Below are positions 40,720 through 64,000 of a stretch of 64,000 bases of DNA, one piece after another. Within the stretch, counting starts at the first letter, position 1, and each line of letters starts with the position of its first letter. This DNA comes from a virus (lineage: Duplodnaviria; Caudoviricetes): positions 1 through 64,000 of the IMG/VR virus record IMGVR_UViG_3300027672_000010; one strand, 5' to 3'. Position numbers and translations under genes: made by a program. Under the pieces are notes generated by a model. It was not told the origin of the DNA and made no database searches. It saw nothing but the letters and a program-made list of their open reading frames with translations.

Positions 40720-41169
40720 ATGGCAAGAGCATTCTCAGTAGAAGACGGTAAACTTGATAACCAAGTCACGTTAAACGCTACAAATAATCGCGAGTACATA
40801 GACATTGATATGTCTTTCTCTGCGAAACCGACTGGTGACGTTTATAAAAAGAATGCTGTGGCGGCAGTTAAGCAGTCACTCAAGAACCTATTAATGACAG
40901 CACGAACCGAGAAACCATTCCAAGCATACTTTGGATGTAATCTCAATTCGTATTTGTTTGAACTTGCGGACGCAGGAACAGTAGGTGAGATCAAGATTGC
41001 TATCCGAGAGAATGTAAGAGTGTATGAACCAAGGGTTGATCATAAGAAATTGGTAATCCGATGTGTATTGTCTCCGAACGATAACACTCTTATAATAACA
41101 TTAGTTTTTAACGTATTGAATTCTGGCGAACAAGCAGAGTTCACAACACGACTGAATAGGTTACGATAA
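40720..41169 (+). CDS. gp25: Baseplate wedge subunit
   Basis: AVKQS..NL..T...EKPF...FG, LFE, YEPRV. Confidence 0.92.
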   Translation: MARAFSVEDGKLDNQVTLNATNNREYIDIDMSFSAKPTGDVYKKNAVAAVKQSLKNLLMTARTEKPFQAYFGCNLNSYLFELADAGTVGEIKIAIRENVRVYEPRVDHKKLVIRCVLSPNDNTLIITLVFNVLNSGEQAEFTTRLNRLR

Positions 41170-43148: not shown

Positions 43149-44299
43149 TGCCAAACCATACTATCTTTGATAAAACACTAGTAGACACGAATAGACGTGA
43201 CATCAACCTTAGAGAACCCCAAGTTGAGTCCGTCTTACCCGATCATATTCTAGCAGAGTATCCGAAGTTTGTCTCGTTTCTAAAACACTACTATGACTTT
43301 GAGTCACAGAATACATCCTTAACTCGTTTCTTAAACAATATGTTCGAGACGAGGGATGTTACACAGACTGACAAAGATCTACTAAGTTATTTCGAAGACG
43401 AGTATCTATTAGGTCAGAACTACTTCAAAGGTTTCGTAGATAAGAGGACTGCTGTTAAGTACTCTAGTTATCTCTATAGAACCAAGGGTACTAGATACTC
43501 TATACAACAATTCTTCAAGACATTCTTTGACATTGAACCAGATGTGGTGTATACTAAACAATATATATTTACATTAAATGAATCAAAGGTAGGTGCAGAA
43601 TCATCTAGATTTCTCACCGACAACAAATTATATCAAACCTTTGCTGTACAGATTAGATCAGAATTATCTATCGCACAGTGGAGAGATGCCTATAAGTTGA
43701 TCGTTCATCCCGCAGGAATGTATCTTGGTGGACTTACACAGATCGTAGGTGCCGCAGGATTCGATAATGCTCAGTACGATCCGGGTCAAGCAATTAAACC
43801 ACCAATCGTATTGGAAGGTGAAGGTGGATTTACAACATTAGGATTCGAGCAGAACACCGCACTATTCGACTTTGGTATAACAAGTGACGCAGGTAACGTA
43901 TTGAAGTTTAGAACTAGATTGGGTAGTAGCGCAGGTAAGGCAAAGGATAGTGATCAACTCGCACTAGGTATTCCACGCGGTAATGATTGGTCAGATCTTG
44001 AGAATCTTACTGTCGATAACCTTGACAGAATGTATTCTAGTCTTGGTGAGTACCTCACTCCAGATAGTCCAACGTTGGATGATGATAGTGATGGATCAAC
44101 ATTGTACAGTGGATTCGACTTATCTTCTAGCGAACTGATCGACCAAGAGACATTCACTTGGAACCCTGCTGTGACTAGGTTCGACTCTGATAACTCATCA
44201 TTGCTAGTTACAGATACAATAAATAGAGGAGCAATACGCTCCGTAGGCGATTCCGATTCTGAGATATCTTTGCGTGAGATAATCAGAAGAGGGATGTAA
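43148..44299 (+). CDS. gp7: Baseplate wedge initiator-like
   Basis: YP.FV.FL..YY, Y..KGT..S, HPAG. Confidence 0.7.
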   Translation: MPNHTIFDKTLVDTNRRDINLREPQVESVLPDHILAEYPKFVSFLKHYYDFESQNTSLTRFLNNMFETRDVTQTDKDLLSYFEDEYLLGQNYFKGFVDKRTAVKYSSYLYRTKGTRYSIQQFFKTFFDIEPDVVYTKQYIFTLNESKVGAESSRFLTDNKLYQTFAVQIRSELSIAQWRDAYKLIVHPAGMYLGGLTQIVGAAGFDNAQYDPGQAIKPPIVLEGEGGFTTLGFEQNTALFDFGITSDAGNVLKFRTRLGSSAGKAKDSDQLALGIPRGNDWSDLENLTVDNLDRMYSSLGEYLTPDSPTLDDDSDGSTLYSGFDLSSSELIDQETFTWNPAVTRFDSDNSSLLVTDTINRGAIRSVGDSDSEISLREIIRRGM

Positions 44300-44306
44300 A
44301 TAATAG

Positions 44307-44314
44307 TATAAATA
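44307..44314 (+). promoter_or_regulatory. Late promoter
   Basis: TATAAATA. Confidence 0.8.
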
Positions 44315-44339
44315 GAAGTAATAATATTCGGGAAGTAAG

Positions 44340-45359
44340 ATGACTAGACAAGTATTAAACAGAGGAACGATTGCGAATGATGGCACAGGCGATACGCTTC
44401 GCGGTGCCGCATTAAAGATCGAACAGAACATTATCGAGATCTACAATAAGTTAGGTGACGGTGATGCACTGACTCCTCTTATTGACTTTGACTCCAGTGG
44501 AATTATATTTAAAGATTCCGCAGGTGGATCATTCTCGTCTCGAATTGGTGTTGTTGCTCCGACTGCTAGTAACCTAATCTATGTCCCGAATGCTTCGGGT
44601 CAGTTGGTTATGGATGCCGCAACTCAGACACTCACCAATAAGACTCTGACTAGTGCGGTTCTTACCACTCCTCAGATCAACGACACTAGTGCTAATCACC
44701 AGTATGTTGTTGCAGTAAGTGAACTTGCCGCAGACAGGACAGTCACACTCCCATTGTTGGGTGCCGCAGATGAGTTTACATTCAATAGTCATACACAGAC
44801 ACTTGTTAACAAGACACTTACTGCTCCACGAATAGATAATATTCGTATGGGTGACGGTGATGGTATACTTGATAGTGCAGGTAACGAACAACTATTATTT
44901 GTTGCAGACTCCTCTTCTCCAGTTAACTATCTTCGCATTACAAGTGGACGTACCAATGTTGCACCGATACTTAAAGCAGTAGGCGAATCTACTACTTCAT
45001 TGTCATTGCAAGGATCTGGTAATGGTGCTGTACAGATTGACTCTAAACTTGTTCTTAAAACACAAAGTGTGGGTGGTGCAGGTGCGTTAAGTGTTAATGT
45101 TCCAGTATCAATTATCGTGAATAATTCTGGTGCAGATTATACTCTACCCAATGGTACTCAGACTGGTGAAGTGAAGTATATAACCAACACAAAGAATGTC
45201 AATGCCGTTATCAAACCAACATCATCTAACATTGGTGCAGTTTCTACTATAACATTGACACAAAATGACTCAGTAATGCTTATGTGGTTCACCAACCAAT
45301 GGGCAATAATAAATACATATGGTGCGTCTACTGGATCCTCTGATCCGGCAGTTGCGTAA
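44340..45359 (+). CDS. gp9: Baseplate tail-fibre connector (gp9/gp10 N-terminus)
   Basis: G..ANDGTGDTLR....KI..N..EIY; QTLTNKTLT repeats. Confidence 0.75.
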   Translation: MTRQVLNRGTIANDGTGDTLRGAALKIEQNIIEIYNKLGDGDALTPLIDFDSSGIIFKDSAGGSFSSRIGVVAPTASNLIYVPNASGQLVMDAATQTLTNKTLTSAVLTTPQINDTSANHQYVVAVSELAADRTVTLPLLGAADEFTFNSHTQTLVNKTLTAPRIDNIRMGDGDGILDSAGNEQLLFVADSSSPVNYLRITSGRTNVAPILKAVGESTTSLSLQGSGNGAVQIDSKLVLKTQSVGGAGALSVNVPVSIIVNNSGADYTLPNGTQTGEVKYITNTKNVNAVIKPTSSNIGAVSTITLTQNDSVMLMWFTNQWAIINTYGASTGSSDPAVA

Positions 45360-45382
45360 CAACATAAATTAGGAATAGATAA

Positions 45383-46753
45383 ATGCCAGTAGTAACCGAT
45401 ACATTTAAAAAACAAGTCTTGGATGATCTCCTTGCCGATCAAGTCAGTGCGTCCATAAGATATTATGCCGCAATTGGTAGATCAGAAGACTGGAACGATT
45501 CGGATGTGGCAACTGTTCCTACGAATGATGCCGCAAGTGCGCGAGATGCTCGTGGTGGTTTCCAATCACTCAAACTTATTGAGGATGCCTCTTATGTCAC
45601 TCCTCGTAGAATCTGGATTGCTAACCTGATCTATTCTGCCTTTGATGACAATGATGTTGGGTTCCCAGTGAATCCTTTCTATGCCATCAACTCTAACAAC
45701 GAGATCTACATTTGTTTGGAGCAGGGTAAGAAGCAGGATGGTACCTCTCAGTTGTCTACTATTCAACCTACAGGTAATACTATTGGTTCTCCTTTCCGTA
45801 CTGCGGATGGATACACTTGGAAATTCCTATACTCTATTGGTGCATTGAGAGCAGACAAGTTCTTATCCTCTGCATATCAACCAGTACGGTATGTTGCCTC
45901 AACTGACTCAGACAGTCCTGCCGAAGATCTTCAACAAGAGATCGTACAGAACAATGCAATTCCGGGACAGATCTTAGGATACGCAATCACCAACGGTGGT
46001 ACTGGTTATACTTCTACTCCTACAGTAAGCATTATCGGTAACGGTACTAACGCAAGAGCATATGCAGTTAAGTCTGGTGAAGTAATCATCGACATTAAAG
46101 TTGTAGCAGATAGTTCTGGCAACTCTAGTGCGTCTTACTTCGGTAAAGACTATGACTATGCTAACGTAGTTATTACTGGTGGTGGCGGTGACTCGTGTAC
46201 TGCACGTCCTATTATAGGACAACGTGATGGTATCGGTGCTAACCCAGTAATTGATCTTAAATCAAATGGTATGATGTTTAATACAAAACCAGAAGGAATA
46301 GAAGGTGGTGACTTTGTTACAGGTGATGAGATCTTCCGTCAAGTATCACTCGTTCGTAATCCTCGTGTTGACTCTGCAAATGGGACTCTTCTCACTTCTA
46401 CCACCGCTAGGGTCTTAGACAAGATTCGATTCAACTCTGGTGCGTTCTTGAAGTCTACTGTACAGAAGTCTACCATTAGTGGTGCGACCTCTGGTGCTAC
46501 AGCAATTCTTGATGACACAAATGATTCGGATACTGTATGGTATCACCAGAATACAACAACAGGATTTAAACCTTTCGCAGTAGGAGAAACTGTGTCGGTA
46601 GTTGGTAATGCATCTATCACTGGAGTTATTGCCGCAAAGACTCAGGGCGAAGCAGATCCTTACTCTGGAGATCTCCTATATATAGATAACCGATCACCAG
46701 TAACACGATCTACCGACCAAACCGAAGACTTGAAAATAGTAATCACTATCTAG
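45383..46753 (+). CDS. gp8: Baseplate wedge subunit
   Basis: YICL, S...PT, DGY.WK.LY, SG.LLYIDNR..V.R...Q.EDLKI. Confidence 0.9.
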   Translation: MPVVTDTFKKQVLDDLLADQVSASIRYYAAIGRSEDWNDSDVATVPTNDAASARDARGGFQSLKLIEDASYVTPRRIWIANLIYSAFDDNDVGFPVNPFYAINSNNEIYICLEQGKKQDGTSQLSTIQPTGNTIGSPFRTADGYTWKFLYSIGALRADKFLSSAYQPVRYVASTDSDSPAEDLQQEIVQNNAIPGQILGYAITNGGTGYTSTPTVSIIGNGTNARAYAVKSGEVIIDIKVVADSSGNSSASYFGKDYDYANVVITGGGGDSCTARPIIGQRDGIGANPVIDLKSNGMMFNTKPEGIEGGDFVTGDEIFRQVSLVRNPRVDSANGTLLTSTTARVLDKIRFNSGAFLKSTVQKSTISGATSGATAILDDTNDSDTVWYHQNTTTGFKPFAVGETVSVVGNASITGVIAAKTQGEADPYSGDLLYIDNRSPVTRSTDQTEDLKIVITI

Positions 46754-46762
46754 GATTAAGAA

Positions 46763-49700
46763 ATGCCAAATACGTTTACAGAACAGACAATGAGATCGAC
46801 CTATAAGGACGATTATAAAGATAGTGATAATTACTCACAGATCTTATTCAACGCAGGTCGTGCGCTTCAAGCGCGTGAACTTACGCAGATGCAGACTATC
46901 ATCCAGAAAGAAATCCAACGGTTTGCTAATAATGTATACACCAAAGACGGTGTGGCAACTCAGACTGGTGGTATAACTGTTCAGAACTGGCAGTTTGCCA
47001 AGATCTCGAATGATGCGAACAACACGTTCGATACTACTGATAACCTTAACGGTGTTGTCCTTACTGGTTCACAGTCTAGCATTAAGGTAAAGGTTTACCG
47101 TGCAGTCGCGGCAACTGGTACTGATCCAGATACAATCTACATTCAGTATCTAGAAGATCCTACTGCTCGTAGTCCTGCTACTACTTTCCTAGAACCTGCT
47201 CGTGTAACTCCGGGAGAAGTTCTTTCTAATGGATCGAACATCAACCTGACAGTACAGACTACTAACACAACTGCAAACCCTGCTATTGGTACTGCGTGTG
47301 CGGTAGAAGTCGGTTCTTCTGAATTCTATGTTAAAGGACACTTTGTATTTACACCAAAGCAAGAGTTGATCGTATCTAAGTATTCGGCAGATGCAACGGC
47401 AGACATTGGTTATAAGATTGTACAAGATGTTGTTACTGTATCTGATACAGATGACTTATATGATAACCAGAATGCAACTCCTAACCGTTCAAGTCCCGGT
47501 GCTGATAGACTACGAATCAGACTTACTTTGGCAAAACGATCATCATTGGTCGCAGGTGAGACCTTCGTATACTATGCTACTATGTTCCGTGGTGTTATGG
47601 AGAACGAAGTAACTCAGAAAGAAAACTATGGTTTCCATGATCATGTCGCTACACGCGTCCGTGAGATTCATGGTGACTTCATTACAAAATATTGGAAGAT
47701 TGGTATTGCTCCAGACGCAAAGAGTACAACCAACTTCATCATGCGAGTAGATCCGGGAACTGCATATATTGACGGTCACCGTATTGCTACTAAGCAAACT
47801 CAAAGTCTTATTGTTCCTCGTGCTACTGATACTATTGTTCGTGAAGAAGATCAGGTTGGTGTTGACTACGGCAACTACTTCTACTTCAACGATGGCGTTG
47901 GTATGTTGGATATCGATGTCTGTGAATCAGTTAACCTTTATAAAGGTACGGCAGGGCAAGACTCAGTAATTGGTACTGCTAACATTCGTGCGATTACCGA
48001 AGGTGCTTCGGGTACAAGAGTAGGTGGAAACTCTTACGATAGCGTACCTGCATTTAAGGCACACTTATTCAATATCAATCGTACTAACTTTAACTGGTCA
48101 CTTGCAGACGTTTCGTCTATCAAGTCTGTTGCAAACACTCATTATGTCAATACTGTTAAGACAACTAGTAGTGGCAATTCGATTAACAGTGCGGCACTAC
48201 TTCACGAACCAAAGAAGAATGCTTTAATCTTTGATACGCCTTTGCGTAGACCAAAGAACTTCTCTGATGTCACTATGACATTTATGAAGAAGTATAACTT
48301 CACTTCTAGTGGTACCACTCACTTGATTAATCTAACTGATGCAGGTGAATCATTCGTTCGTGCTAGTGATGTGATTGTCGCATCTACTACAGATTTTAAT
48401 CCGAACGGTGTATCTGCCGCGATCTCTACCGCAGGTAATAAGAGAATAACTTTCTCTGGTCTTACTGGTAGTGTCGCATACGAAGTTATCGTATTCATTA
48501 AGAAGACTAATGCTACTGTTAAGTCCAAGACCCTAACGTCTGCGACTGTTACTGCCGCATTGGATTCTGATGGTCAAGGTCGTTACTTCTTAGATCTTGG
48601 TCAATCAGATGTCTATAGTGTTGAACGTATTCGTAAGACTAACTCCGATGGATCAGATCTCTTTACTAACTTCTTGTTTGATGCAGGTAACCGTACTACT
48701 CACCAAGCAGATGGTAAGTTAATCTGGTCTGGTGGTGGTCTTGATAGTTCTACAGATGGTCAAGTCTTTGCTCGATACAAGTACTTCGCAAACTCTACCG
48801 CAGGTTCATTCTTTGCAGTCAACTCTTATGATGGTCAGTTAGACTATCTTGATGTTCCTGCTCAGAAACTACCTACTGGCGGCAAGGTATCTTTGCGTGA
48901 CGCAATCGACTTCCGTCCTTCAATGAACGGTTCTGGTGCGTTTAGTGCAACTGATGTGCCACCTTTACCAGTACCATCCGATACAATTATCGCAGATGCC
49001 GAATACTACTTGCCTCGTGCAGACCGTTTGGTTATCTCAGACAAGAGCGAACTACGTTATATTACTGGTTCATCTTCTCTTAATCCTAAGTTCCCTGACA
49101 TTCCAGTGGATTGTATTGATCTTTATAAGGTTAAGTTAGGGGCGAACACTCTACACACCCAAGATCTCAAAACAACTATTATCCCTCGTAAGGGATATAC
49201 GATGCAAGACATCAACAAGTTGGAACAGAAAGTTGATCGTCTAGAAGAGATGACTACACTTTCATTACTTGAGTTGAACACTAAGTTCTTACAAGTATTA
49301 GATAGTGCTGGTGATGATCGTTCTAAGGCAGGTTTCTTTGTAGATAACTTCTCTAACCATTCCCACACTTCGATAGGTACTAATGTCGGTGGCGGTGGTA
49401 AGTCTTCGATTGATCCCCATGCTAAATTGATGCGTCCTACTTACTCAGAAGATGCTATCGATATGTACTATGATAGTAATCACTCTCTACAGTTAAACAC
49501 TGTTAAGCAAGGCGATTTCGTTACACTAAACTACTCTACGGTTGGATACCAGTCACAAGAACTTGCATCTAATACAGAGAACCTTGCGCCATTCTATGTA
49601 CAGACTTCTATTGGCGCATTGTCAATATCTCCTGAAACCGATAACTGGTTTGATACACAGAAAGTCGGTGAGACTGTTGTAGGTACAGCAACCGAACTAG

Positions 49701-52700
49701 ACTTAACCCATGCTTTATCTTGGAACAACTCTGAGAACTCTTGGTATGGTGTTGATCCTAGTGAACTAGATGTTGGTGATGCTTCTAACTCATTCATCTC
49801 TGGTACTTCTACTCAGGTTACTCACGATTCATTAGACCCAATCCTCATTGGTACTCAACAAACCGAGCATCTTGGAGAGTGGGTTAAAGTTGGTAACGTA
49901 ACTGATGTTGAAACACTATTCACCGAAGTAGTAGAAATCTCTAGGGAACGTGAAGAAGAGATCTCACGAACTACCATCGATTCTTATTGGCAAGCAATAC
50001 AAGATGGCACTTATGAAGATTACTGGGGCAACTGGGACGGTCACTGGGATGGCGTGAACTGGGATAGTCTCTATGGCGTAGGCACTAACTTCTTCACTGG
50101 TGACTTTGGTCTAGGTGGAAACAGTTACGAGGGCGGTGGTCTTTATGGATGGGGATCATTCGATTGGTCATTCGAAGAAATCACTACAGATATGTGGGAT
50201 GTTATTACTTCTGAAACAAGAGATACTGTACGGACTGCTAATACTTCTACATACGAGACTACTCGAACAATCAATACAGAGAATACCTACGAAGGTACTG
50301 TAGAGACAACTACTGCCACAAGCACTTCAAGCACAGTAAACCGTGTTGCAAGTGAGTCAACTATTCGAGACATTATTGGTAGTCGAATCGTAGATGTTGC
50401 AGTTATACCATTCATGCGTCCTATTAGAATCAACTTCAAAGCAGAAGGACTTCGTGCTAACACACAGTACTTCCCATTCTTTGACGGTGAGAACGTATCT
50501 ACTTTCTGTAGAGAAGAGACTGTATACCAAACTTATGGTGACAAGTCTTATACTCTTGCACAAGGTGTTGAGGATGATGAGGGGACTCAACGTCCTACTC
50601 AGGATCACTCACAAGGAAAGACTAACTTAGTCGCCAATGCAGACGGTGAGATCATAGGTTCTTTCGAAGTTCCTAATGGTACTCACATGAGATTCAAGAC
50701 TGGTAGTCGAACATTTGCGATGTATGATGTTAATGCTTCGGATCGGCAATCGGCAATGTCTTTTTGTGAGACAGTATTTACTTCGGCAGGTGTTTTGAAC
50801 AAGACCGAAGATAACGTACAAGTAACTCGCATACTCAAGATTGTTGGTGGATCGACTGTTGCAGTTGAATCCACTACGGCAGTTGAGAATACAGTATGGA
50901 CAGAAAGTGTTGTAACTACCGAAGTTGCCACCGATGTTAGATCAACATCTACTACTACTGTAATCGCAGGGGATCAGTCAACTACTCGCGAACACGTCGG
51001 TCAGACTGTCGTAATAGATCATGGTTGGGGAACTTATCCAGTAGATCATACTACTGACACAGTAACTCCTCCCGGTGGTTCTGGTACACCAGAAACTCAA
51101 CCTGCCGCAGAAGTTCCTGCCAGAAATAGAGGTAAGGGCAATCGAGGAATGCAAGATGGTGGCGCAAGATATGTCGATCCTATTGCACAGACTTTCCAAG
51201 TACTAGAAGCAGGTGGTATCTTCATGCCTAGCGTCGAAGTATACTTTGCGACTAAGGGTAGCACTTCGGTAAGATGTGAGATTCGTCCTGCTGTTCAAGG
51301 AAAACCTTCTTCTACTTCTATCTTGGCATTCAAGGTTCTTAAAGCAAGTCAAGTTAACTTGGTATCGGCAGGTTCTACAAACAAAGAGATGCTACAAAAC
51401 TCTACTAAGTTTATATTTGACAACCCTCTGTTCCTTGCTCCGGGAGAATACTCAATTGTATTAATTCCTACAGACAACAACCCAGACTATAATGTCTATG
51501 TTGGTACTGTTGGTGAGTTCCAGTTGGGATCAAGTACTTCGTTTATATCACAACAACCGACTCTGGGTGGATTCTTTAAATCTCAGAACGGTAAGTTATG
51601 GGAACCATCTAGTGACATTGACTTATGTTACAGACTTAACTGTTGTCAGTTTGTTAGTAGCGGTAATGCGATATTTGAGAACAGTAATGTATCACCACAA
51701 GCACTAGGCAAAGACCCATTACTTGTTGACTCAGGTAGTAACGTTCGAGTAATGTTACAGGGTCATGGTTTACGCGCAGGTGATATGACTTGGATTCGTG
51801 GTATTGACTCCGCAACTAACTTTGGTAATGGTCTTACTGGTGCTGATGTAATTGGCCCTAGAACAGTCATCCAAGCAGATAACTCTGGTTACACATATGC
51901 CGCAGATGCTAACGTAACTTCTCGTAAGTGGTTCGGTGGTTCTTCTGTGACTTCACAACGTAACATTAACTTTGACAGACTCAAACCAATAATGAACTTA
52001 ACTCAACCTTCTTCGACTAACATTACGTTGTCTATGAAGACTACTAGTCAATCTGCTCTGGCAGGTGATCAGACTAGGTTCGTAAAAGATAGTAAGTTTA
52101 GTATTGTTGAGAATAACAAGTGGATTGAGTTTGCTCAACCAAAAGCAATCTACAATAGACGTACCGAGAACTTGACTGGTGCAGGTAAGTTAGCAGGTGA
52201 GAGATCTTCTACTCTACAGGTTACTATGGCAACGACTAACCCATTCCTATCTCCAGTACTTGATCTGGAAGGAATGAGTCTGAATGCTTGTGCTAACTTG
52301 ATATCTAAACAAGACTCTGCCGCAACTGTCGGTTACAATGTTCCGTTAACTTATGTATCAGAGAGATCACCTCTCAACGGTACCGAATCTGCGAAGCATA
52401 TAACTAAGGTTACTACTCTAACAGATGCCGCAGTTGGTCTAAAGGTATTACTTGCCGCTAACCGTCCTCCTGAGTCTGACTTCCAGATTTACTGGAGAGT
52501 GGCGAGTGGTTCAGATCCTATCCAGAAGATGGCATGGACTATTGCACCTGCCGAAGTATCTCCACAACCAGATACGAACAAGAACGTGTTCCGTGAGTAT
52601 CGTTACCTAGTAGGTGGTGAAGGTGGTACTATGAATCCATTTACTCAGTTCCAAGTCAAGATTGTTATGCGATCTACTAACAGTGCGAAATGTCCTACCT

Positions 52701-52735
52701 TCCGTGACTTACGCATAATGGCATTGGCAGTATAA
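46763..52735 (+). CDS. Large virion structural protein (VrlC/DUF4815-like)
   Basis: LF..GRALQARELT.MQ, PGADRL, YYLPR.D, YTM.DI..LE, GFFVDNF, DP.AQTF. Confidence 0.8.
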   Translation: MPNTFTEQTMRSTYKDDYKDSDNYSQILFNAGRALQARELTQMQTIIQKEIQRFANNVYTKDGVATQTGGITVQNWQFAKISNDANNTFDTTDNLNGVVLTGSQSSIKVKVYRAVAATGTDPDTIYIQYLEDPTARSPATTFLEPARVTPGEVLSNGSNINLTVQTTNTTANPAIGTACAVEVGSSEFYVKGHFVFTPKQELIVSKYSADATADIGYKIVQDVVTVSDTDDLYDNQNATPNRSSPGADRLRIRLTLAKRSSLVAGETFVYYATMFRGVMENEVTQKENYGFHDHVATRVREIHGDFITKYWKIGIAPDAKSTTNFIMRVDPGTAYIDGHRIATKQTQSLIVPRATDTIVREEDQVGVDYGNYFYFNDGVGMLDIDVCESVNLYKGTAGQDSVIGTANIRAITEGASGTRVGGNSYDSVPAFKAHLFNINRTNFNWSLADVSSIKSVANTHYVNTVKTTSSGNSINSAALLHEPKKNALIFDTPLRRPKNFSDVTMTFMKKYNFTSSGTTHLINLTDAGESFVRASDVIVASTTDFNPNGVSAAISTAGNKRITFSGLTGSVAYEVIVFIKKTNATVKSKTLTSATVTAALDSDGQGRYFLDLGQSDVYSVERIRKTNSDGSDLFTNFLFDAGNRTTHQADGKLIWSGGGLDSSTDGQVFARYKYFANSTAGSFFAVNSYDGQLDYLDVPAQKLPTGGKVSLRDAIDFRPSMNGSGAFSATDVPPLPVPSDTIIADAEYYLPRADRLVISDKSELRYITGSSSLNPKFPDIPVDCIDLYKVKLGANTLHTQDLKTTIIPRKGYTMQDINKLEQKVDRLEEMTTLSLLELNTKFLQVLDSAGDDRSKAGFFVDNFSNHSHTSIGTNVGGGGKSSIDPHAKLMRPTYSEDAIDMYYDSNHSLQLNTVKQGDFVTLNYSTVGYQSQELASNTENLAPFYVQTSIGALSISPETDNWFDTQKVGETVVGTATELDLTHALSWNNSENSWYGVDPSELDVGDASNSFISGTSTQVTHDSLDPILIGTQQTEHLGEWVKVGNVTDVETLFTEVVEISREREEEISRTTIDSYWQAIQDGTYEDYWGNWDGHWDGVNWDSLYGVGTNFFTGDFGLGGNSYEGGGLYGWGSFDWSFEEITTDMWDVITSETRDTVRTANTSTYETTRTINTENTYEGTVETTTATSTSSTVNRVASESTIRDIIGSRIVDVAVIPFMRPIRINFKAEGLRANTQYFPFFDGENVSTFCREETVYQTYGDKSYTLAQGVEDDEGTQRPTQDHSQGKTNLVANADGEIIGSFEVPNGTHMRFKTGSRTFAMYDVNASDRQSAMSFCETVFTSAGVLNKTEDNVQVTRILKIVGGSTVAVESTTAVENTVWTESVVTTEVATDVRSTSTTTVIAGDQSTTREHVGQTVVIDHGWGTYPVDHTTDTVTPPGGSGTPETQPAAEVPARNRGKGNRGMQDGGARYVDPIAQTFQVLEAGGIFMPSVEVYFATKGSTSVRCEIRPAVQGKPSSTSILAFKVLKASQVNLVSAGSTNKEMLQNSTKFIFDNPLFLAPGEYSIVLIPTDNNPDYNVYVGTVGEFQLGSSTSFISQQPTLGGFFKSQNGKLWEPSSDIDLCYRLNCCQFVSSGNAIFENSNVSPQALGKDPLLVDSGSNVRVMLQGHGLRAGDMTWIRGIDSATNFGNGLTGADVIGPRTVIQADNSGYTYAADANVTSRKWFGGSSVTSQRNINFDRLKPIMNLTQPSSTNITLSMKTTSQSALAGDQTRFVKDSKFSIVENNKWIEFAQPKAIYNRRTENLTGAGKLAGERSSTLQVTMATTNPFLSPVLDLEGMSLNACANLISKQDSAATVGYNVPLTYVSERSPLNGTESAKHITKVTTLTDAAVGLKVLLAANRPPESDFQIYWRVASGSDPIQKMAWTIAPAEVSPQPDTNKNVFREYRYLVGGEGGTMNPFTQFQVKIVMRSTNSAKCPTFRDLRIMALAV

Positions 52736-55773: not shown

Positions 55774-58700
55774 ATGTCGAATAATAAGACATTACCGTTA
55801 AAGTTAAAAGACAGTGATGGTAATCTCCAACAGATCAGTGCAACGGAGAAGAACTATGTTGCCTACCTTGCAGGACTACAGAACGCGCAAGCGGATAGTA
55901 GTGATGTAGGTCTTCTCACGCTTGCCTCTAGTGGAAACCGAGGAATCGGTTCCACCCTAGACACCTACTACCCAGAACCAGTAGGTACGCATCCTTACGA
56001 CCAAGTTTCGGTAATCAGTAGCACAAAGAACCTGTTCCAGATTAATGGTACGGCAAGCGAAGCAGATAGTGACTTCCGTCTACCCATTGCTCATTTCGGG
56101 GCGCACGTTTACGAACAACCTGCTTCGAACTTCAATGCCTTTAGTGATGAGATCAATGCTCGTATTGTTCTATCGGACTATCCGGGATCTTTAAAGTTAT
56201 CTCCAACTGCTCCTAGTTCTGACTATAGCATACTAGTACCTTCTGTTCTGTTAGACAAACGTGCTGATTCCGCAGGTAATGCGATTGTCATTAACGATTA
56301 CTCTATCTGGCGTAGAGATACAATGACTGCTCCTAGTGCTATCCTTGATAGTAAAGGCGGCATATCAAGTCTTGCAGGTATTAAGAGATCCAATGGAGAC
56401 TCTGGTACATTCCAAGGTATACAGAAATTAACTGACAGGCAGATCCAAGTATCTGTTGGTCAACGCGCAAAGACTAGACGTGCTATCAGTGGCAACGTTG
56501 GTTCATACGAACTTCGTACTGCTTCGCAAGGTGCCCCTGCCTCTGGAACTTGGGCATCTAAGGGTACCGCTACAAACACTATTCGACTGGTCAATGAAAT
56601 TGCGTACACAAGAACCAGTACTCGATCACGAGGTTCAGCATATGCAAGAACTCGTGTAGGTAACTATACAAGAAATTCTACTCGTAATGACCCACAGAAC
56701 TTTGCAGGTAATTATGGAACTACCTATGTAGGTAACTATACAAGAACATTTGCAGGTAATTATGCAGGTGACTTCACTGGTAATTATGCTCGTGACTTCG
56801 TTGGTAACTATCAGCGTGGATTTACTGGTGACTATACTGGTAATTACACTGGTGACTATACTCGTAACTTTACACGAAACCGCGCATCTACATTTAACCG
56901 CACTAGGGCGAGTAATTACGCAGGTAATTATACAGGCAACTATGCCAGAAACTTTGAACGTACTCGCAACTCAAACTATATTCTTAGTCGTGTGTCAACC
57001 TATCAACGTGGGTTCGCAGGTAACTATACTCGTATAATAGCAGACCAATACGCAGGTAACTTCGTAGGTAACTATGCTCGTACTGGTATTGTTTCTAGAA
57101 CAAGTGCTTACTCACGAACAAGAATTCAGAATAGAGTATCAAACTACTCTCGTGCTTTCTTAGGTAACTACTCAAGAGAATATCTGCGCACATCAACAGC
57201 AACAAGTACTACTGACTTTACTGGTGAATATTCTAGACAGTACCTCCGAACTCGTGTGTCTAACTATTCTCGTAACTTTGGTGGTAACTATTCAAGAGCA
57301 TATACTCGCGCATTCATTGGTAACTATGCCAGAACATTTGCAGGTAACTTTGTTGGTAACTATGTGGGAGGTGCCACTACTTATGGTACTCAAACTGCCT
57401 ATGGGAAAACTCGTATACAGAACAGGATAGTAACTTACATAGGTAACTATACACAGATTCGTACATCTCTCTATACAGGTAACTTTACGAGAGGCACTTA
57501 TTTTACAGGAAACTATATTGGAACTAATTGGCCAACAAGTGAAGTAAATCGATATGTCGGTAACTACACTCAGGGATTTACTCGCATATATGTTGCGAAT
57601 GCACAAAACTTCCAAGGTAACTACACAGGTGCGCAAATCTTTTATGGTGGGTTCTCAGGTGACTTTACTGATTATAGGTATGGTGGTTTCTACACTGGTG
57701 TAGAAAGTACCGTAACATTCACCGGTGACTTTACGAGAACTAGGGTAGCACTAGGAGCGTTTACTAGAGTATCTAATGTCGGTGATGGAAATTATCTTAG
57801 AAATAGTGGCGTTGGATACACTAGAACCAGAACATCTACTATAATCTCAGTAAGGGAAAGAGCAAGTACGAATATTGGTTATGCCAGACTTGGCCCCGCG
57901 AAAGGCGGCAGTCCGCTATACTATATTGGTGCAGGTTTCTATACAGGTAACTACACAGGCCTCCAAAACTTTACTGGCAACTTCCTTAGATTGTTTGTGG
58001 GCAACTACGTCCGTACCTTCAATAGATCTTCTAGTCGTCAGTTCAGTCGTCTAATATTGGGGTCAAGGTACTCAACCTTTACTGGCAACTATGTTGGTAA
58101 CTATGCTCGTGCCTTTACTAGAACTTCTACACGAAATAGAGACAGCACTTACATTAGAACTCGAACCTCAAGTTACACAAGAAACTTTGAACGTACTCGT
58201 GTATCAAACTATACTCGCGACTTCGCAGGTAACTTCTCAAGAAACTTCAGTAGAATACGCGTTAGTTCTTACATAGGTAATTTCATTGGTAACTATTCTA
58301 GAATCTTTGTGGGTGACTATAGTAGAAACTATGCGAGAACATTCGTAGGAAATTACACTGGTAACTATCAGAGAACGTTTATTGGTAACTACACAAGAGA
58401 TTATAACAGAACTTCTACGCGAACAAGTATCGTTAACAGAACCTCTGCATATAATAGAACTCGTGTATCAAACTATGCTCGTACCTTTGTAGGAGACTAC
58501 ACAAGAAACTTCGGTGGTAACTACGCAAGAAACTTTACTGCTGATTATACTAGAATAAGAGCATCATCTTTTGCTAGGACTAGAACTTCTAACTTTACTA
58601 GAAATCGTGGTTCAACATATACAGGTGTATACTCTGCTGTTTATGTAGGCATATATAGTAGAGCATATAGTCGTACCCGAACAAGTAACTACACTAGAAA

Positions 58701-58941
58701 CTCTACTAGAGATTCGACCAGAAACCGTGATTCGGCATATGCAAGAACTCGTGGTTCTACTTTTACTAGGTCAAGAACAAGTGCGTATACTGGTGACTTC
58801 ACTGGAGATTACACAAGAAACTTCGAGGGTAACTACTCACGGAACTTTGCAGGTAATTATGTTGGTAACTATGTTGGGCAGACTATCGGTAATAGTATAT
58901 TCAACGTGGAGACTTATACTTTATATGTAAGAACTGCATAG
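55774..58941 (+). CDS. Self-complementary repeat filament protein A (1055 aa)
   Basis: About 275-aa N-domain, then tetrapeptide repeats whose N- and C-arms (56608-57363, 58117-58872) mirror each other. Confidence 0.9.
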   Translation: MSNNKTLPLKLKDSDGNLQQISATEKNYVAYLAGLQNAQADSSDVGLLTLASSGNRGIGSTLDTYYPEPVGTHPYDQVSVISSTKNLFQINGTASEADSDFRLPIAHFGAHVYEQPASNFNAFSDEINARIVLSDYPGSLKLSPTAPSSDYSILVPSVLLDKRADSAGNAIVINDYSIWRRDTMTAPSAILDSKGGISSLAGIKRSNGDSGTFQGIQKLTDRQIQVSVGQRAKTRRAISGNVGSYELRTASQGAPASGTWASKGTATNTIRLVNEIAYTRTSTRSRGSAYARTRVGNYTRNSTRNDPQNFAGNYGTTYVGNYTRTFAGNYAGDFTGNYARDFVGNYQRGFTGDYTGNYTGDYTRNFTRNRASTFNRTRASNYAGNYTGNYARNFERTRNSNYILSRVSTYQRGFAGNYTRIIADQYAGNFVGNYARTGIVSRTSAYSRTRIQNRVSNYSRAFLGNYSREYLRTSTATSTTDFTGEYSRQYLRTRVSNYSRNFGGNYSRAYTRAFIGNYARTFAGNFVGNYVGGATTYGTQTAYGKTRIQNRIVTYIGNYTQIRTSLYTGNFTRGTYFTGNYIGTNWPTSEVNRYVGNYTQGFTRIYVANAQNFQGNYTGAQIFYGGFSGDFTDYRYGGFYTGVESTVTFTGDFTRTRVALGAFTRVSNVGDGNYLRNSGVGYTRTRTSTIISVRERASTNIGYARLGPAKGGSPLYYIGAGFYTGNYTGLQNFTGNFLRLFVGNYVRTFNRSSSRQFSRLILGSRYSTFTGNYVGNYARAFTRTSTRNRDSTYIRTRTSSYTRNFERTRVSNYTRDFAGNFSRNFSRIRVSSYIGNFIGNYSRIFVGDYSRNYARTFVGNYTGNYQRTFIGNYTRDYNRTSTRTSIVNRTSAYNRTRVSNYARTFVGDYTRNFGGNYARNFTADYTRIRASSFARTRTSNFTRNRGSTYTGVYSAVYVGIYSRAYSRTRTSNYTRNSTRDSTRNRDSAYARTRGSTFTRSRTSAYTGDFTGDYTRNFEGNYSRNFAGNYVGNYVGQTIGNSIFNVETYTLYVRTA

Positions 58942-58989: not shown

Positions 58990-61900
58990 GTGGCAAAGTC
59001 GAACATACCGCTAAAGGCAGAAGGAACAAACGCTGATCTGAAGGAGTTAACTCCTACGGAAGAGCATTACCTCGCCTATCAAGCAGGACTACAATTAGCG
59101 GCAGGTACCACAAGCGCAGGTACTCTACATAAGACTTCGGGTACCACTATCGGTACGTTCGTTGATACTTACTTCAATGAGGCAGACGGCACACACCCTG
59201 CCTCTGCCATAACTTCTGGTAGTACATCTACTCCCCTAAAGCAAATACAAGGTACTGCTAACTACACTGGTGCGAACTATCGCAGACCAGTAGGGTATCT
59301 GAACAGTGGTGCCGAAGGTCTATATGAATTTCCTGACTCTGATATGTCTACTCTTACGACTAGACTTAATGCTCGTATTGCTCTATCAGATTATCCCGGA
59401 ACATATAAACTAGGAACCTCTGCTCCGTCAAGTGACTATAGTGCCTTACTGTCAAACGTATACACCGATACATTGGGTAACGGAACAAGCACAGTATACA
59501 ACATCTACAAACGAAATACAATGACTGCCCCCTCAACTATCAGACCTATGGGTTTGGTTGGTTCAGATTCGGCAGGGTCGTTTAGTGGTATTCGTGAACT
59601 GAATGATAACGAGATCAAGCATACGTTTGGTCAACACGCCAAGACAGAACGTGCAGTAGTAGGTAACATTGGTTCTTATCAGTTGAGATCTGCTACCCAA
59701 GGTGTTCCTTCTGCTTCTGGTACATGGGCGGCAAAGGGTACTGCTACTAATACAAAGAGAACAACTTCGGAAGTTGCGTACACAAGAACTCGCGCATCCG
59801 CATATACTCGTAGTCGTGGTTCTGTTTATGCAAGAACTCGTACTTCGGCATACACAAGAAATTCCCTTCAGACCTTTACTGGTACTTACGCAGGTAACTT
59901 TGTAGGTAACTACACTCGCGCCTTTGCCGGTAACTATTCAAGAGACTTTGCAGGAAACTACGTTGGAGACTTCATTGGTAACTATCAACGTACTCGTGTG
60001 TCGCAATACACAACTAATTTCACAGACGTATTTACTAGAAACTTTGTAGGCAACTATCAACGTATTCGAGTATCAAACTATACTCGTGACCGTATTACTG
60101 TATTTACTGGTAACTTCATAGGAAACTATGTTCGTACTCGTATCTCTGCCTATGCTAGAACAAGTACTCGAACTAGAAACAGCACCTACATTAGAACTCG
60201 AACCTCTGCATACACGACTGTCTTCGCAGGTAACTATATTGGAGACTTCGTAGGAAACTACTCACGAACTCGTGTGTCTGGTTACTCTGGTGCTTACACT
60301 AGAATAAGAAACTCTGCCTATAACAGAACTCGTACTTCAACATATACGCGTGACCGTGTTACTAACTTTACTGGTGATTTCACTGGTAACTATTCTCGTA
60401 ACCGTGTGTCGGCATATACTAGAATCTCAACACGAACTAGAGTATCCGCATATACTCGCTCTAGAATCTCAACATATACTCGTGATAGATTACAAACATT
60501 TACTGGGGATTTCGTAGGTAACTATGGACGTACTCGCACCTCTGCTTATATCAGAACTCGTGCATCTAACTATGCAGGAAACTATACTGGGAACTATACT
60601 CGTACTCGTATCTCTGCTTACACGCGTGACCGTGTTACTAACTTTACTGGTGATTTCATTGGTAATTACTCACGAACTCGTAGTTCAGCATATATCCGTG
60701 ATAGACTAGTAACCTTTACTGGTGACTATGTTGGTAACTATAGCAGAACATTTGTTGGTAACTATTCCAGAACATTTGTTGGTAACTATGCTAGGGCATT
60801 CGCAGGGAATTACGTTGGTAATTATGCGAGGATCTCAACAAGAACTCGTACATCTACTTACAATAGAACATCAACAAGAGATTCTTTAGTAACATATACT
60901 CGCGATAATGTTGTTGGTTATACAGGTAATTTCGGTGGTAACTATTCCAGAAACTTTATTGGTAACTATTCCAGAACATTCGCAGGTGAATATGTTGGTA
61001 ACTATGCTCGTGCGTTCGCAGGAGAGTACATAGGTAACTATTCACGAACTTTCGTAGGAGACTACATTGGTAACTTCATAGGAAACTATGCTCGTGGATT
61101 CGCAGGTGAATATGTTGGTAACTATGCTCGTGGATTCGTGGGCGAATATGCTCGTACCAGAAACTCTACATACAATCGAAATAGTACTAGAATCTCTACG
61201 CGTATTCTTAACTATACCAGACTTCGAATTGCTATCAGTACTCGCATCCTAGACTATCAGCGTACATCCACAAGAACTAGCACACCTACCGAAACGTACA
61301 CACGAATTGGTTTCTATGCAGGTAACTTTGTAGGTAACTATACGCGTATCAGTATAAACACTGGTACCTATATTCGTATCAGAACTGCGACAGGAACGTA
61401 CACAAGAAATAGAACTGCGATAGGAACATACACAAGACTTCGAATTGCCATTAGCACAAACACTGGAACGTACACACGAAACCGTATTGGATCGTTCCTT
61501 GGTAACTATACTAGACTTCGAATTGCCATCAGTACAAACACTGGTACTTACATCCGTATCCGTACTGCCGCGTATCTTGGTAACTATACTCGTATATTAT
61601 ACTACGCAGGTAACTTCGCAGGTAACTACACTCGTACTCTGTATTATACTGGTAACTATACTCGTAATCTTTCTTACATTGGTAACTATACTGGTAACTA
61701 CACGAGAAACTTAGCATACCTTGGTAACTATACTCGTAATCTTTCTTACATTGGTAACTATACTGGTAACTATACTCGTACTCTGTATTATACTGGTAAC
61801 TATACTCGTACTCTGTATTACGCAGGTAACTTTGTTGGTAACTTCTCAGGGCAGTATACTAGAACATCGACTCGTACTTCTACTCGCAATGTTGCCTATA

Positions 61901-64000
61901 CCCGACAGGGTGGAAAGGGCGGTAACGTGACTCTATATTACATTGGTAGTGGTTATTACGCAGGTAACTTCGCAGGTAACTACACTCGTACTAGTACGCG
62001 GACTAGTACGCGGGCCCGTGCCGCGACTGGTACTTACATTAGAATTCGTACTGCGACTGGCACATACATTCGTATACGACTAACCAACCGTATTGCTACT
62101 GGCACATACACACGAAACCGTATTGCTACTGGCACATACATTCGTATACGACTAACCAACCGTATTGCTACTGGTACTTACATTAGAATTCGTACTGCGA
62201 CTGGCACATACATTCGTACCTCTACAAGAACCAGTACTCCTATAGGAACTTATACTAGAAACCGTATTGGTTCGTACACAGGTAACTATCAACGTACTCT
62301 GTATTATACTGGTAACTATCTTGGTAACTATACGCGTACTAGTGCGCCCTCATACATTGGTAACTATCAACGTACTCTGTATTATACTGGTAACTATCTT
62401 GGTAACTACACGAGAATCTTAGCATACCTTGGTAACTATACGCGTACTCTATACTATACTGGTAACTATCAGCGTACCTTATATTATACTGGTGATTACA
62501 CTCGTACCTCTACTCGTACCTCTACTCGTATACTTGGGTACACTAGAATCGGTTCATACGCAGGAGACTTTGTAGGTAACTATACTCGTATTGGTTTCTA
62601 TACTGGTAACTATACTGGTGACTACACGAGAGTAGGATACTATACTGGTGACTTCACTGGCAACTATGCTCGTGCTTTTATTGGTAACTATTCACGAACT
62701 CGTATATCTACATATAATAGAACATCCACACGGAATCGTATCTCGACTTATATTAGAACTCGTGCTACTAACTTTACTCGTAACCGTATCTCCGCATATG
62801 CTAGAACTAGTACGCGTAGTCGTATCTCAGCATACGCTAGGACTAGTACTCGCGCACGAGCATCTACCTACACTAGAGGTAGAGTAAGTGCATACACAAG
62901 AACATCCACACGAGATAGTACTGTAGTTTCTACTTCGGGTGGGGGTGCAAGATACTCAGATCAATCTAACTTGTTGTGGCAAAACTTCCCTGAGTGGACA
63001 GTTGGTACTGGATCCGCAACTAACTACGGACAGAATGGTGACGGTAACTCTCGTCTTGTAGTATCAGATTCCCCAAAAGGAAGTGATATCGTTTGGCAGA
63101 CACTAAACAACGATACAGCATCTAACGCAGATGGTGGTTGGAATACGTCTTCATTTGCAGTTGACCATACTAAGAAATATCGCTTCTCCGTTTGGATGAG
63201 AAGACCAGTAATTGGTAATGGATATGGATACTTAGGTATTGGTGGAGCAGTTCTTAACAGAGACAATGGTGCCGCCAATAGTAACCATTACTTCTGGTAT
63301 TCAAACTCATTCTTTAATTCTCAAAATGCAAACGAATGGTTCTTGATTGTAGGTCACGTCTGGCCAACTGGTTCTGGTGCAGGTGCGATAGATTCTGCTT
63401 CTGGTATATATAACGTTGCAGGTGAGAAGGTCGCAAACATTATTCGTGATGCGATATGGAATAATAACACAACAACTTACCATCGTTCATACTTGTACTA
63501 TTCAACTGATACCGCCACAAACCAACAGTTCTGGGAACCTCGTGTAGATGATATGACTCATTCACTTGTTCCAACTGTTGCTAATATGATTGCACAGTCA
63601 GGTTCATACACGCGTACATTCGCAGGTAACTTTGTTGGTAACTACTCTCGTGGGTTTGCAGGTAACTATACTGGCGAATATTTAAGAACCTCGACTCGTA
63701 CTCGTAACAGTTCTTATATCCGTAACCGCGTATCAACCTACACTAGAAACCGTGTGTCTGCGTATGCTCGTACTCGTATCACAGATTATGTTGCGAACTA
63801 TATTGGTAATTATGCTCGTAACTTTGTGGGAGAGTATACGCGTAACAGTATACAGGTATTCGCAGGTAACTTTGTTGGTAACTACTCTCGCGCATTTGCA
63901 GGAGAATACACAAGGATCTCTACGCGAACTCGTGTAAGTAACTTCGTAGGTAACTATAGCAGAAACTTCGCAGGAGACTATTCTCGTACTCGTGTTACTG
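58990..64000 (+). CDS. Self-complementary repeat filament protein B, >1670 aa, 3' partial (absent from ORF track)
   Basis: Frame 1 open from GTG 58990 to window end in my translation; N-domain paralogous to protein A (PLK...YxAYxAGLQ, GTHP, NARIxLSDYPG, GSYxLR, GTWxxKGTATNT). Confidence 0.92.
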   Translation, partial: MAKSNIPLKAEGTNADLKELTPTEEHYLAYQAGLQLAAGTTSAGTLHKTSGTTIGTFVDTYFNEADGTHPASAITSGSTSTPLKQIQGTANYTGANYRRPVGYLNSGAEGLYEFPDSDMSTLTTRLNARIALSDYPGTYKLGTSAPSSDYSALLSNVYTDTLGNGTSTVYNIYKRNTMTAPSTIRPMGLVGSDSAGSFSGIRELNDNEIKHTFGQHAKTERAVVGNIGSYQLRSATQGVPSASGTWAAKGTATNTKRTTSEVAYTRTRASAYTRSRGSVYARTRTSAYTRNSLQTFTGTYAGNFVGNYTRAFAGNYSRDFAGNYVGDFIGNYQRTRVSQYTTNFTDVFTRNFVGNYQRIRVSNYTRDRITVFTGNFIGNYVRTRISAYARTSTRTRNSTYIRTRTSAYTTVFAGNYIGDFVGNYSRTRVSGYSGAYTRIRNSAYNRTRTSTYTRDRVTNFTGDFTGNYSRNRVSAYTRISTRTRVSAYTRSRISTYTRDRLQTFTGDFVGNYGRTRTSAYIRTRASNYAGNYTGNYTRTRISAYTRDRVTNFTGDFIGNYSRTRSSAYIRDRLVTFTGDYVGNYSRTFVGNYSRTFVGNYARAFAGNYVGNYARISTRTRTSTYNRTSTRDSLVTYTRDNVVGYTGNFGGNYSRNFIGNYSRTFAGEYVGNYARAFAGEYIGNYSRTFVGDYIGNFIGNYARGFAGEYVGNYARGFVGEYARTRNSTYNRNSTRISTRILNYTRLRIAISTRILDYQRTSTRTSTPTETYTRIGFYAGNFVGNYTRISINTGTYIRIRTATGTYTRNRTAIGTYTRLRIAISTNTGTYTRNRIGSFLGNYTRLRIAISTNTGTYIRIRTAAYLGNYTRILYYAGNFAGNYTRTLYYTGNYTRNLSYIGNYTGNYTRNLAYLGNYTRNLSYIGNYTGNYTRTLYYTGNYTRTLYYAGNFVGNFSGQYTRTSTRTSTRNVAYTRQGGKGGNVTLYYIGSGYYAGNFAGNYTRTSTRTSTRARAATGTYIRIRTATGTYIRIRLTNRIATGTYTRNRIATGTYIRIRLTNRIATGTYIRIRTATGTYIRTSTRTSTPIGTYTRNRIGSYTGNYQRTLYYTGNYLGNYTRTSAPSYIGNYQRTLYYTGNYLGNYTRILAYLGNYTRTLYYTGNYQRTLYYTGDYTRTSTRTSTRILGYTRIGSYAGDFVGNYTRIGFYTGNYTGDYTRVGYYTGDFTGNYARAFIGNYSRTRISTYNRTSTRNRISTYIRTRATNFTRNRISAYARTSTRSRISAYARTSTRARASTYTRGRVSAYTRTSTRDSTVVSTSGGGARYSDQSNLLWQNFPEWTVGTGSATNYGQNGDGNSRLVVSDSPKGSDIVWQTLNNDTASNADGGWNTSSFAVDHTKKYRFSVWMRRPVIGNGYGYLGIGGAVLNRDNGAANSNHYFWYSNSFFNSQNANEWFLIVGHVWPTGSGAGAIDSASGIYNVAGEKVANIIRDAIWNNNTTTYHRSYLYYSTDTATNQQFWEPRVDDMTHSLVPTVANMIAQSGSYTRTFAGNFVGNYSRGFAGNYTGEYLRTSTRTRNSSYIRNRVSTYTRNRVSAYARTRITDYVANYIGNYARNFVGEYTRNSIQVFAGNFVGNYSRAFAGEYTRISTRTRVSNFVGNYSRNFAGDYSRTRVT
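62935..63600 (+). other. Globular carbohydrate-binding-like domain inserted in protein B
   Basis: Non-repetitive, Trp-rich, about 220 aa: NLL...W, DGGWN, YRFSVW, WFLIVGH, HRSYLYY, FWEPRVD. Confidence 0.6.

Follow-up and report, generated by a model that had tools for sequence, protein, structure and literature searches.

Repetitive, beta-rich fibres that serve host recognition are known from several viruses, and both the triple beta-helix of T4 gp5 and gp12 and the triple beta-spiral of the adenovirus fibre are parallel trimeric shafts. Chains that fold back over a long distance occur in SMC and Rad50, whose arms are antiparallel intramolecular coiled coils, and a stalk of two different repeat regions is found in the streptococcal antigen I/II, in which an alanine-rich helix pairs with a proline-rich polyproline helix in a stalk of ~50 nm. 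In the T4 gp37 needle (D11 stem, PDB 2XGF) stem residues 882-931 and 960-1009 flank a tip of residues 932-959; the fold-back is inserted in a collar or base domain that the C-terminus completes with a final piece, and the needle is a trimer with His-bound iron (PMC6957217). We describe here a gene at the end of a 64,000-nucleotide (nt) stretch of viral DNA (Duplodnaviria; Caudoviricetes; positions 1 to 64,000 of IMG/VR record IMGVR_UViG_3300027672_000010; the window in what follows). Its product, a putative fibre protein of 1934 amino acids (aa), contains two arms of short repeats that mirror each other under a residue code. The mirror observation is confirmed as real and lies far beyond chance. 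Antiparallel pairing of the two arms with each other is the sole explanation found that fits all controls, and we consider it probable that the protein is a virion fibre with an intrachain fold-back beta stalk and a side-chain pairing code.

As in the T4 gp37 needle, the chain would run out to a tip and back, judging from the mirror register of aa 266-1912 about ~aa 978, and both proteins belong to T4-like myoviruses. Unlike in gp37, the arms have ~712 residues (~1000 in the homologue of phage C48C1), fourteen times the ~50 of gp37; they are free of His, whereas the His residues of the gp37 stem bind iron; and they follow a four-residue repeat and a pairing code, while gp37 has no such repeat and no arm-to-arm code has been reported for it. 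Neither a PDB search nor the family profile gave a sequence link between the two proteins. With the SMC and Rad50 arms the protein would share a very long fold-back that holds distant halves in register, the meeting of N- and C-terminal parts at the base and arm lengths that change together. Those arms, however, are alpha-helical heptads and handle DNA, in contrast to the period-2 and period-4 beta periodicity, the Arg/Tyr/Gly pairing and the likely virion fibre here. The likeness to antigen I/II lies in an adhesin-type stalk made from two complementary repeat regions of one chain, together with a globular binding domain; there, the pairing is alpha/polyproline II instead of beta, and both the repeats and the organism differ. 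A fold-back stalk of the proposed kind, if true, would be a fibre design outside the known parallel trimeric shafts, and no other registered beta pairing inside a single chain that we know of would come near it in length. A first-pass annotation of the window had known of no phage fibre of this design, and we likewise found none in the literature searched (at the level of listings and abstracts), in Pfam, in NCBIfam or in the PDB. The tentaclins are unrelated (PMC10743442).

The open reading frame (ORF) that begins at 58990 stays open at the end of the window and reaches its stop at 64794 of the 92.7-kb contig. The gene and its parts are laid out as follows, where i and j are the residue numbers of partners.

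58990-64794 of the contig (58990..64000 in the window), plus strand: putative fibre gene, 1934 aa, 1670 aa of them within the window
58990..59775, plus strand: N-terminal globular domain, aa 1-262, family-defining, presumed attachment domain
59785..61920, plus strand: outgoing (left) arm, aa 266-977, period-4 repeats and 17 hexamers
61900..61941, plus strand: tip turn, aa 971-984, with the symmetry centre at ~aa 978 within GGKGG
61924..62919, plus strand: return (right) arm, part 1, aa 979-1310, partner aa 977-646, i+j=1956
62926..63600, plus strand: globular module of ~225 aa, aa 1313-1537, apparently looped out of the return arm, facing two unpaired left units (aa 637-644)
63625..64000, plus strand: return arm, part 2, which extends to aa 1912 (nt 64725) and of which aa 1546-1670 lie within the window, partner aa 632-266, i+j=2178

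At the C-terminus stands a conserved tail of ~22 aa with a YTLYVR motif. The repeat region (59785-63999) is rich in Thr (16.5%), Arg (14.2%), Tyr (12.2%), Gly (10.6%) and Asn (9.6%), with Tyr and Phe together at 17.7%, and is devoid of His (0 among 1423 residues), Cys, Met and Trp. With Arg at 14.2% against only 3.7% for Asp and Glu, the net positive charge of the stalk would be very large. Lys is nearly absent (0.1%), and the GGKGG of the turn carries one of the very few.

The first-pass annotation had read the repeat region as units of four and six residues that pair outward from the turn, with xGx(Y/F) opposite xRx(R/S), xRxF opposite xSxY and xGxF opposite x(T/Q)xF. We parsed the units independently by an untuned rule, in which the chain is cut after each Tyr or Phe and then into 4-mers, and the last unit of a segment is a 6-mer if the segment length modulo 4 is 2. 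This parse returned the same 107 units for the left arm (60514-61899, aa 509-970). It also returned the same 17 hexamers, and 17/17 face hexamers in the unit-by-unit table, as is needed to hold i+j constant; the table also rules out that the hexamer match is a mere A-B-A'-B' order of blocks. Reading outward from the turn, 63/72 unit pairs fit the code, and 71/72 are of equal length, the single mismatch being an artefact of where the arm was cut. Shuffling the unit order of the right arm, which preserves composition and units, gave a mean of 18.4 fitting pairs (standard deviation 3.5, maximum 33, 20,000 shuffles), and sliding the register by -8 to +8 units left 12-32 of 72. The best direct, non-mirror register reached 28/72 complementary and 25/43 same-class units. 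The parallel trimeric shafts, in contrast, match in direct order. We regard the mirror code and its statistics as established. That the register extends over all 107 units, as had been proposed, is borne out by the ~94 of 105 units that fit, with the qualification that an insert of ~225 aa (aa 1313-1537), overlooked in the first-pass annotation, interrupts the right arm. Over the whole left arm, before a shift by one unit at the insert is allowed for, 59 units follow rule 1, 17 are hexamers facing hexamers, 14 follow rule 2, 3 follow rule 3, 12 follow none and 2 are skipped.

The code is sharper still at the level of single residues. A scan of all diagonals found 148/161 code pairs between right 990-1310 and left 966-646 and 149/184 between right 1546-1912 and left 632-266. 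These two diagonals score 122 and 79, whereas the runner-up scores 28, and they are offset by 222 because the globular module loops out of the return arm; beyond it the register picks up again on i+j=2178, leaving two left units without a partner. On i+j=1956 the coded (even) face contributes 166 pairs, among which R-Y (61), G-R (24), G-S (22), G-L (16), A-Y (12), F-R (8) and F-S (7) stand out, and not one is Y-Y, R-R or G-G. Pairing continues up to the turn itself (aa 976/980 and 975/981). Mutual information between partners amounts to 1.20 bits on the coded face against 0.24-0.73 in slid registers, while the other face gives 0.16 against 0.10-0.19. Covariation is therefore confined to alternate residues, as expected for a beta-strand periodicity with one coded face. 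A mirror correlation of aromatic with aromatic residues was tried as a measure and dropped, since aromatics face Arg.

A forecast was made before the sequence beyond the window was read. The missing C-terminus should comprise ~250 residues, pair with aa 266-508 and end in a 22-aa tail. The actual addition is 264 residues long and ends in the 22-aa tail as forecast. Of its coded-face pairs, 96/121 fit the code, against 34-77 in slides, and 46/61 of its units meet the two strict rules, with ~9 more meeting the third as read from the pair list.

It is scarcely credible, in our estimate, that the mirror pattern lacks structural meaning and arose instead from the composition of the repeats, from segmental duplication or from a DNA palindrome. 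In favour of such an origin are the low complexity of the protein, its strong direct periodicities at lags of 4, 8 and 24 and the tandem DNA arrays in the gene. However, the shuffles and direct registers described above fall far short of the mirror register, the code predicted sequence that had not been seen, and it recurs in proteins with other unit orders. A DNA palindrome as the cause was rejected, as there are only 8 short, scattered inverted repeats of 14-28 nt, none longer and none at the scale of the arms; going by the codon table, reverse complements of the codons would in any case not yield the observed partner residues. The tandem arrays themselves are arranged as follows:

61578..61843, plus strand: tandem array of a 72-nt unit, 3.7 copies, outgoing arm, aa 864-952
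62026..62260, plus strand: tandem array of a different 72-nt unit, 3.3 copies, return arm, aa 1013-1091

By arithmetic with i+j=1956 the two arrays occupy mirror positions, and their copies are about equally similar (78% and 80-85%). Their positions fit a length change on one arm that is offset by the other, and the sequence suggests that duplications on the two arms compensate each other. In the protein as read, aa 815-866 also hold a 26-aa duplication that faces another at ~aa 1101-1140.

The code is not a peculiarity of this one protein. Directly upstream lies a paralog that shares the N-domain, the type of repeat, the turn motif and the C-tail:

55774..58941, plus strand: upstream paralog, 1055 aa
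56611..57363, plus strand: paralog outgoing arm, aa 280-530, i+j=1313
58120..58872, plus strand: paralog return arm, aa 783-1033, i+j=1313

Its arms form 100/126 code pairs on i+j=1313 (score 48, next diagonal 19), with an irregular middle part. In the homologue of phage C48C1 (WJE88074.1, 3347 aa), residues 878-1186 and 1480-1788 give 131/155 code pairs, and the very first repeats pair with the very last (28/32). This homologue carries several more globular modules in its return arm, and an exact repeat of ~75 aa extends across the end of a globular module and the first repeats that follow; it reflects a duplication of recent date or else an artefact of assembly. A search with the N-domain retrieved 346 representative proteins at E<=1e-3 (50% clustering). 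Complete members range from 318 to 2282 aa, and the C-tail motif occurs in 102/154 family proteins examined. The family was tested with a pairing matrix built from the fibre protein, a gapped mirror alignment and 12 segment-order shuffles for each protein; in 47/101 complete relatives the mirror signal lies above all 12 shuffles, with z up to 28. In 15 of the 47 the ends of the alignment lie no more than 45 aa from the N-domain and from the C-terminus, often at equal distances from the two. A scan of mutual information, which needs no matrix, found the identical diagonal in P0069 and P0095 and one near the base-anchored diagonal in several others. When the arms of 21 proteins picked for strong self-complementarity were paired all against all (21x21), the cognate arm was best in 12/21 by raw score and in 20/21 rows and 20/21 columns after normalisation for arm length. 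The generality of the code in the family and the specificity of cognate arms are thereby established as well. For many relatives, the length of the protein added to the position of a conserved GTW motif gives the mirror diagonal, and the C-tail would therefore pair with the stretch right after GTW in the N-domain.

Sequence databases otherwise offer little company. No close full-length orthologue was found, the nearest being a 511-aa fragment (P0007). A megablast of both fibre genes against phage records gave no match, and tblastn of the N-domain matched C48C1 alone. The fibre protein falls into no family of Pfam or NCBIfam; among PHROGs it matches phrog_15773 alone (function unknown, E 2.5e-6), and nothing meaningful came from sequence searches of the PDB that started from the protein, from the insert or from the family profile.

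How the mirror code may be realized in a fold can be outlined, and the beta geometry, the intrachain pairing, the fibre role and the oligomer state are what we infer. After the 262-aa N-domain the chain would run out for ~712 residues as a beta strand of four-residue repeats, reverse at a Gly-rich turn (~aa 978) and return antiparallel in strict register, with i+j constant, so that the 22-aa C-terminal tail would come back to the N-domain. The register would be set by one face of the strand, where Tyr or Phe would stand opposite Arg (or Ser/Ala), Gly opposite Arg, Ser or Leu, and like never opposite like; Arg side chains might overlie the Gly of the partner strand and stack on Tyr. The other face, a uniform array of Thr, Asn, Ile, Val and Ala without pairing information, would have a symmetric packing partner, for which the same face in further copies is the most plausible candidate. 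The ~225-aa module would loop out and leave the register undisturbed, the coded face would make the stalk strongly basic and aromatic, and stalk length would evolve through matched duplications on both arms.

Structure prediction bears out the long strands expected from such a hairpin in one case and not in another. In a 436-aa homologue, P0108, modelled with a 67-sequence alignment, two continuous strands, 260-294 (35 residues) and 398-434 (37 residues), form the base of the stalk with a predicted local distance difference test score (pLDDT) of ~90+, next to an N-domain at ~95+ and a C-tail at ~96-98. The two strands would pair with each other, because no other strand in the model exceeds 14 residues, and the C-tail probably packs against the N-domain of the same chain. 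The second model, of a fragment around the tip (aa 847-1110, AlphaFold2, no alignment), showed a local solenoid- or meander-like stack for the left arm and no hairpin, so that one of the refuting outcomes named in the first-pass annotation came about in part. This model raises a different reading, in which each arm is a beta-solenoid or meander of its own, the arms lie side by side antiparallel, and the mirror match stems from contacts between rungs. We judge this unlikely. In the tip model the left arm is built of 8-12-residue strands and GN turns (pLDDT 75-85), and the weak Foldseek rows that it produced are beta-helical proteins, both of which such local folding would explain. But a lateral contact between solenoids would bind only a fraction of the residues, while the code occupies every second residue over hundreds (148/161); in pure 4-mer stretches GN recurs every 4-8 residues, too frequently for turns; the tip model, made without an alignment, shows the right arm unfolded; and the homologue for which an alignment was available shows unbroken strands of 35-37 residues.

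Sequence complementarity alone cannot separate pairing within a chain from pairing between chains, and the outgoing arm could in principle pair, antiparallel and domain-swapped, with the return arm of another copy, giving dimers or networks. We give this arrangement a very low probability. Pairs extend right to the tight Gly-rich turn, many relatives pair from just past the N-domain to just before the C-tail, and the C-tail is confidently folded in the P0108 model, where it would pack on the N-domain of its own chain. A two-chain complex prediction of aa 646-760 with aa 1196-1310 scored 0.00, without controls, and counts neither way.

A quite realistic refinement of the intrachain fold-back stalk, and one not exclusive of it, is a homotrimer. 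Three fold-back hairpins would make up a six-stranded fibre, in effect a hugely lengthened gp37 needle stem, in which the Thr/Asn/Ile face would line the three-fold axis and the Arg/Tyr face would form the outside. The odd face shows no mirror covariation, as expected if it packs on identical residues of symmetry mates. The fibre locus, which we take to correspond to the position of gp11, gp12 and wac in the T4 gene order, matches these trimeric T4 proteins in placement. The collar domain in which the fold-back stem of gp37 is inserted occurs also in gp10, gp11 and gp12 (PMC6957217). A VIA-align search lists, against residues 237-436 of the P0108 model, T4 gp11 (Z 3.0, 48 residues, root-mean-square deviation 3.9, 23% identity) and a baseplate chain of a Klebsiella phage KP1 variant (Z 2.9, 46 residues, 20% identity). 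These Z scores are, however, far below the meaningful level, and the family profile against the PDB finds no gp10, gp11, gp12 or gp37 chain. The repeat region is also free of His and therefore has no gp37-type metal sites. The best hits of a wide VIA-align search were MACPF C-terminal beta-rich domains and an MABP domain (Z 6.5, below the informative level of the tool), and Foldseek returned no row at E<=0.001 for either model against the PDB or for P0108 against BFVD.

Several points weigh against the fold-back stalk. The tip model, with its short local strands on the left arm, left the right arm unfolded and is weak as a whole (mean pLDDT 52), and a Foldseek search with it returned only non-significant beta-helix rows. 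In the P0108 model the distal 100 stalk residues fall below pLDDT 50. Beyond the 47 relatives with a mirror signal, 54/101 give none with this code. Among these are P0001 and P0004, in which the repeat is 'xxxY', and for P0001 neither a base-anchored scan nor a code scan showed a clear register. Many complete members (P0001-P0004 and about half of the family) have Tyr at every fourth residue and few Gly or Arg units; such relatives may follow different pairing rules or lack pairing altogether. The cognate test shows specificity and not prevalence, since its 21 proteins were picked for their strong signal. We know of no precedent for a free two-stranded ribbon of hundreds of residues, which may be unstable alone.

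The giant antiparallel beta ribbon of the first-pass annotation keeps its antiparallel pairing under a residue code, whereas an isolated two-stranded form is conjecture, and the span of ~230 nm given for it is arithmetic and not a measurement. In its boldest form, which we hold possible but doubtful, the stalk would be to proteins what a stem is to nucleic acids. A heritable code alone would register >700 residue pairs in a two-stranded ribbon a few hundred nm long, its length would be tuned by compensating duplications, and modules would loop out much as they do from an RNA helix. Provided that the fold-back stalk is true, a simple, readable rule would lead from sequence to long-range contacts and could be tested by swapping pairs, as is done for an RNA stem. 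It could also guide the construction of protein rods in which both the length and the heights of the side modules are set by design. The family as such represents a large, uncharacterised group of probable host-recognition fibres of marine phages that vary widely in length and in inserted modules.

The module that interrupts the return arm (aa 1313-1537) has no match in Pfam (even at E 10), NCBIfam or the PDB. Its relatives, at 34-53% identity, are found in non-fibre phage proteins and in secreted or surface proteins of Bacteroidota, and the latter also carry LamG domains. An assignment as a LamG or concanavalin-like lectin (PF13385, PF02210) was rejected, since there is no Pfam match and the association is one of co-occurrence only; in the one case mapped, residues 787-987 of the homologue P0166 align with the module, whereas its best PF13385 stretch is at 606-760. 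A protein atlas places it in a cluster of carbohydrate-binding modules (0.93), which is a lead only. The module homologues examined (9 of 33) are without repeat arms and reach no mirror score >=10. From its sequence relatives the insert looks like a mobile binding module, and it is a candidate for a receptor-binding knob that projects sideways from the stalk.

The window covers the structural region of a marine T4-like myovirus, in which ORFs at 41169-46753 match the baseplate-wedge proteins gp6, gp8 and gp9/10. By gp6, phage C48C1 (labelled Kyanoviridae, 38% identity) comes closest among the records, followed by Pelagibacter, Methylophilales and Synechococcus myophages at ~33%. The fibre gene sits between the baseplate-wedge genes and the neck genes. 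Downstream of it come three small ORFs, a gene resembling the tail-fibre assembly family phrog_3304, two structural proteins and then neck, sheath-stabiliser and terminase genes; the first four of these lie on the contig as follows.

64862-67182 of the contig: three small ORFs (155, 248 and 231 aa, function unknown) and a 119-aa gene like the L-shaped tail-fibre assembly protein

Three small hypothetical genes followed by a fibre-assembly-like gene also adjoin the C48C1 homologue, and the four downstream genes are candidates for folding helpers of the stalk. The interval from the gp8-like gene to the fibre genes holds a 1990-aa ORF (46763-52735) that matches DUF4815 and, strongly, PHROG 358 (unknown function); it is followed by an ORF of 931 aa.

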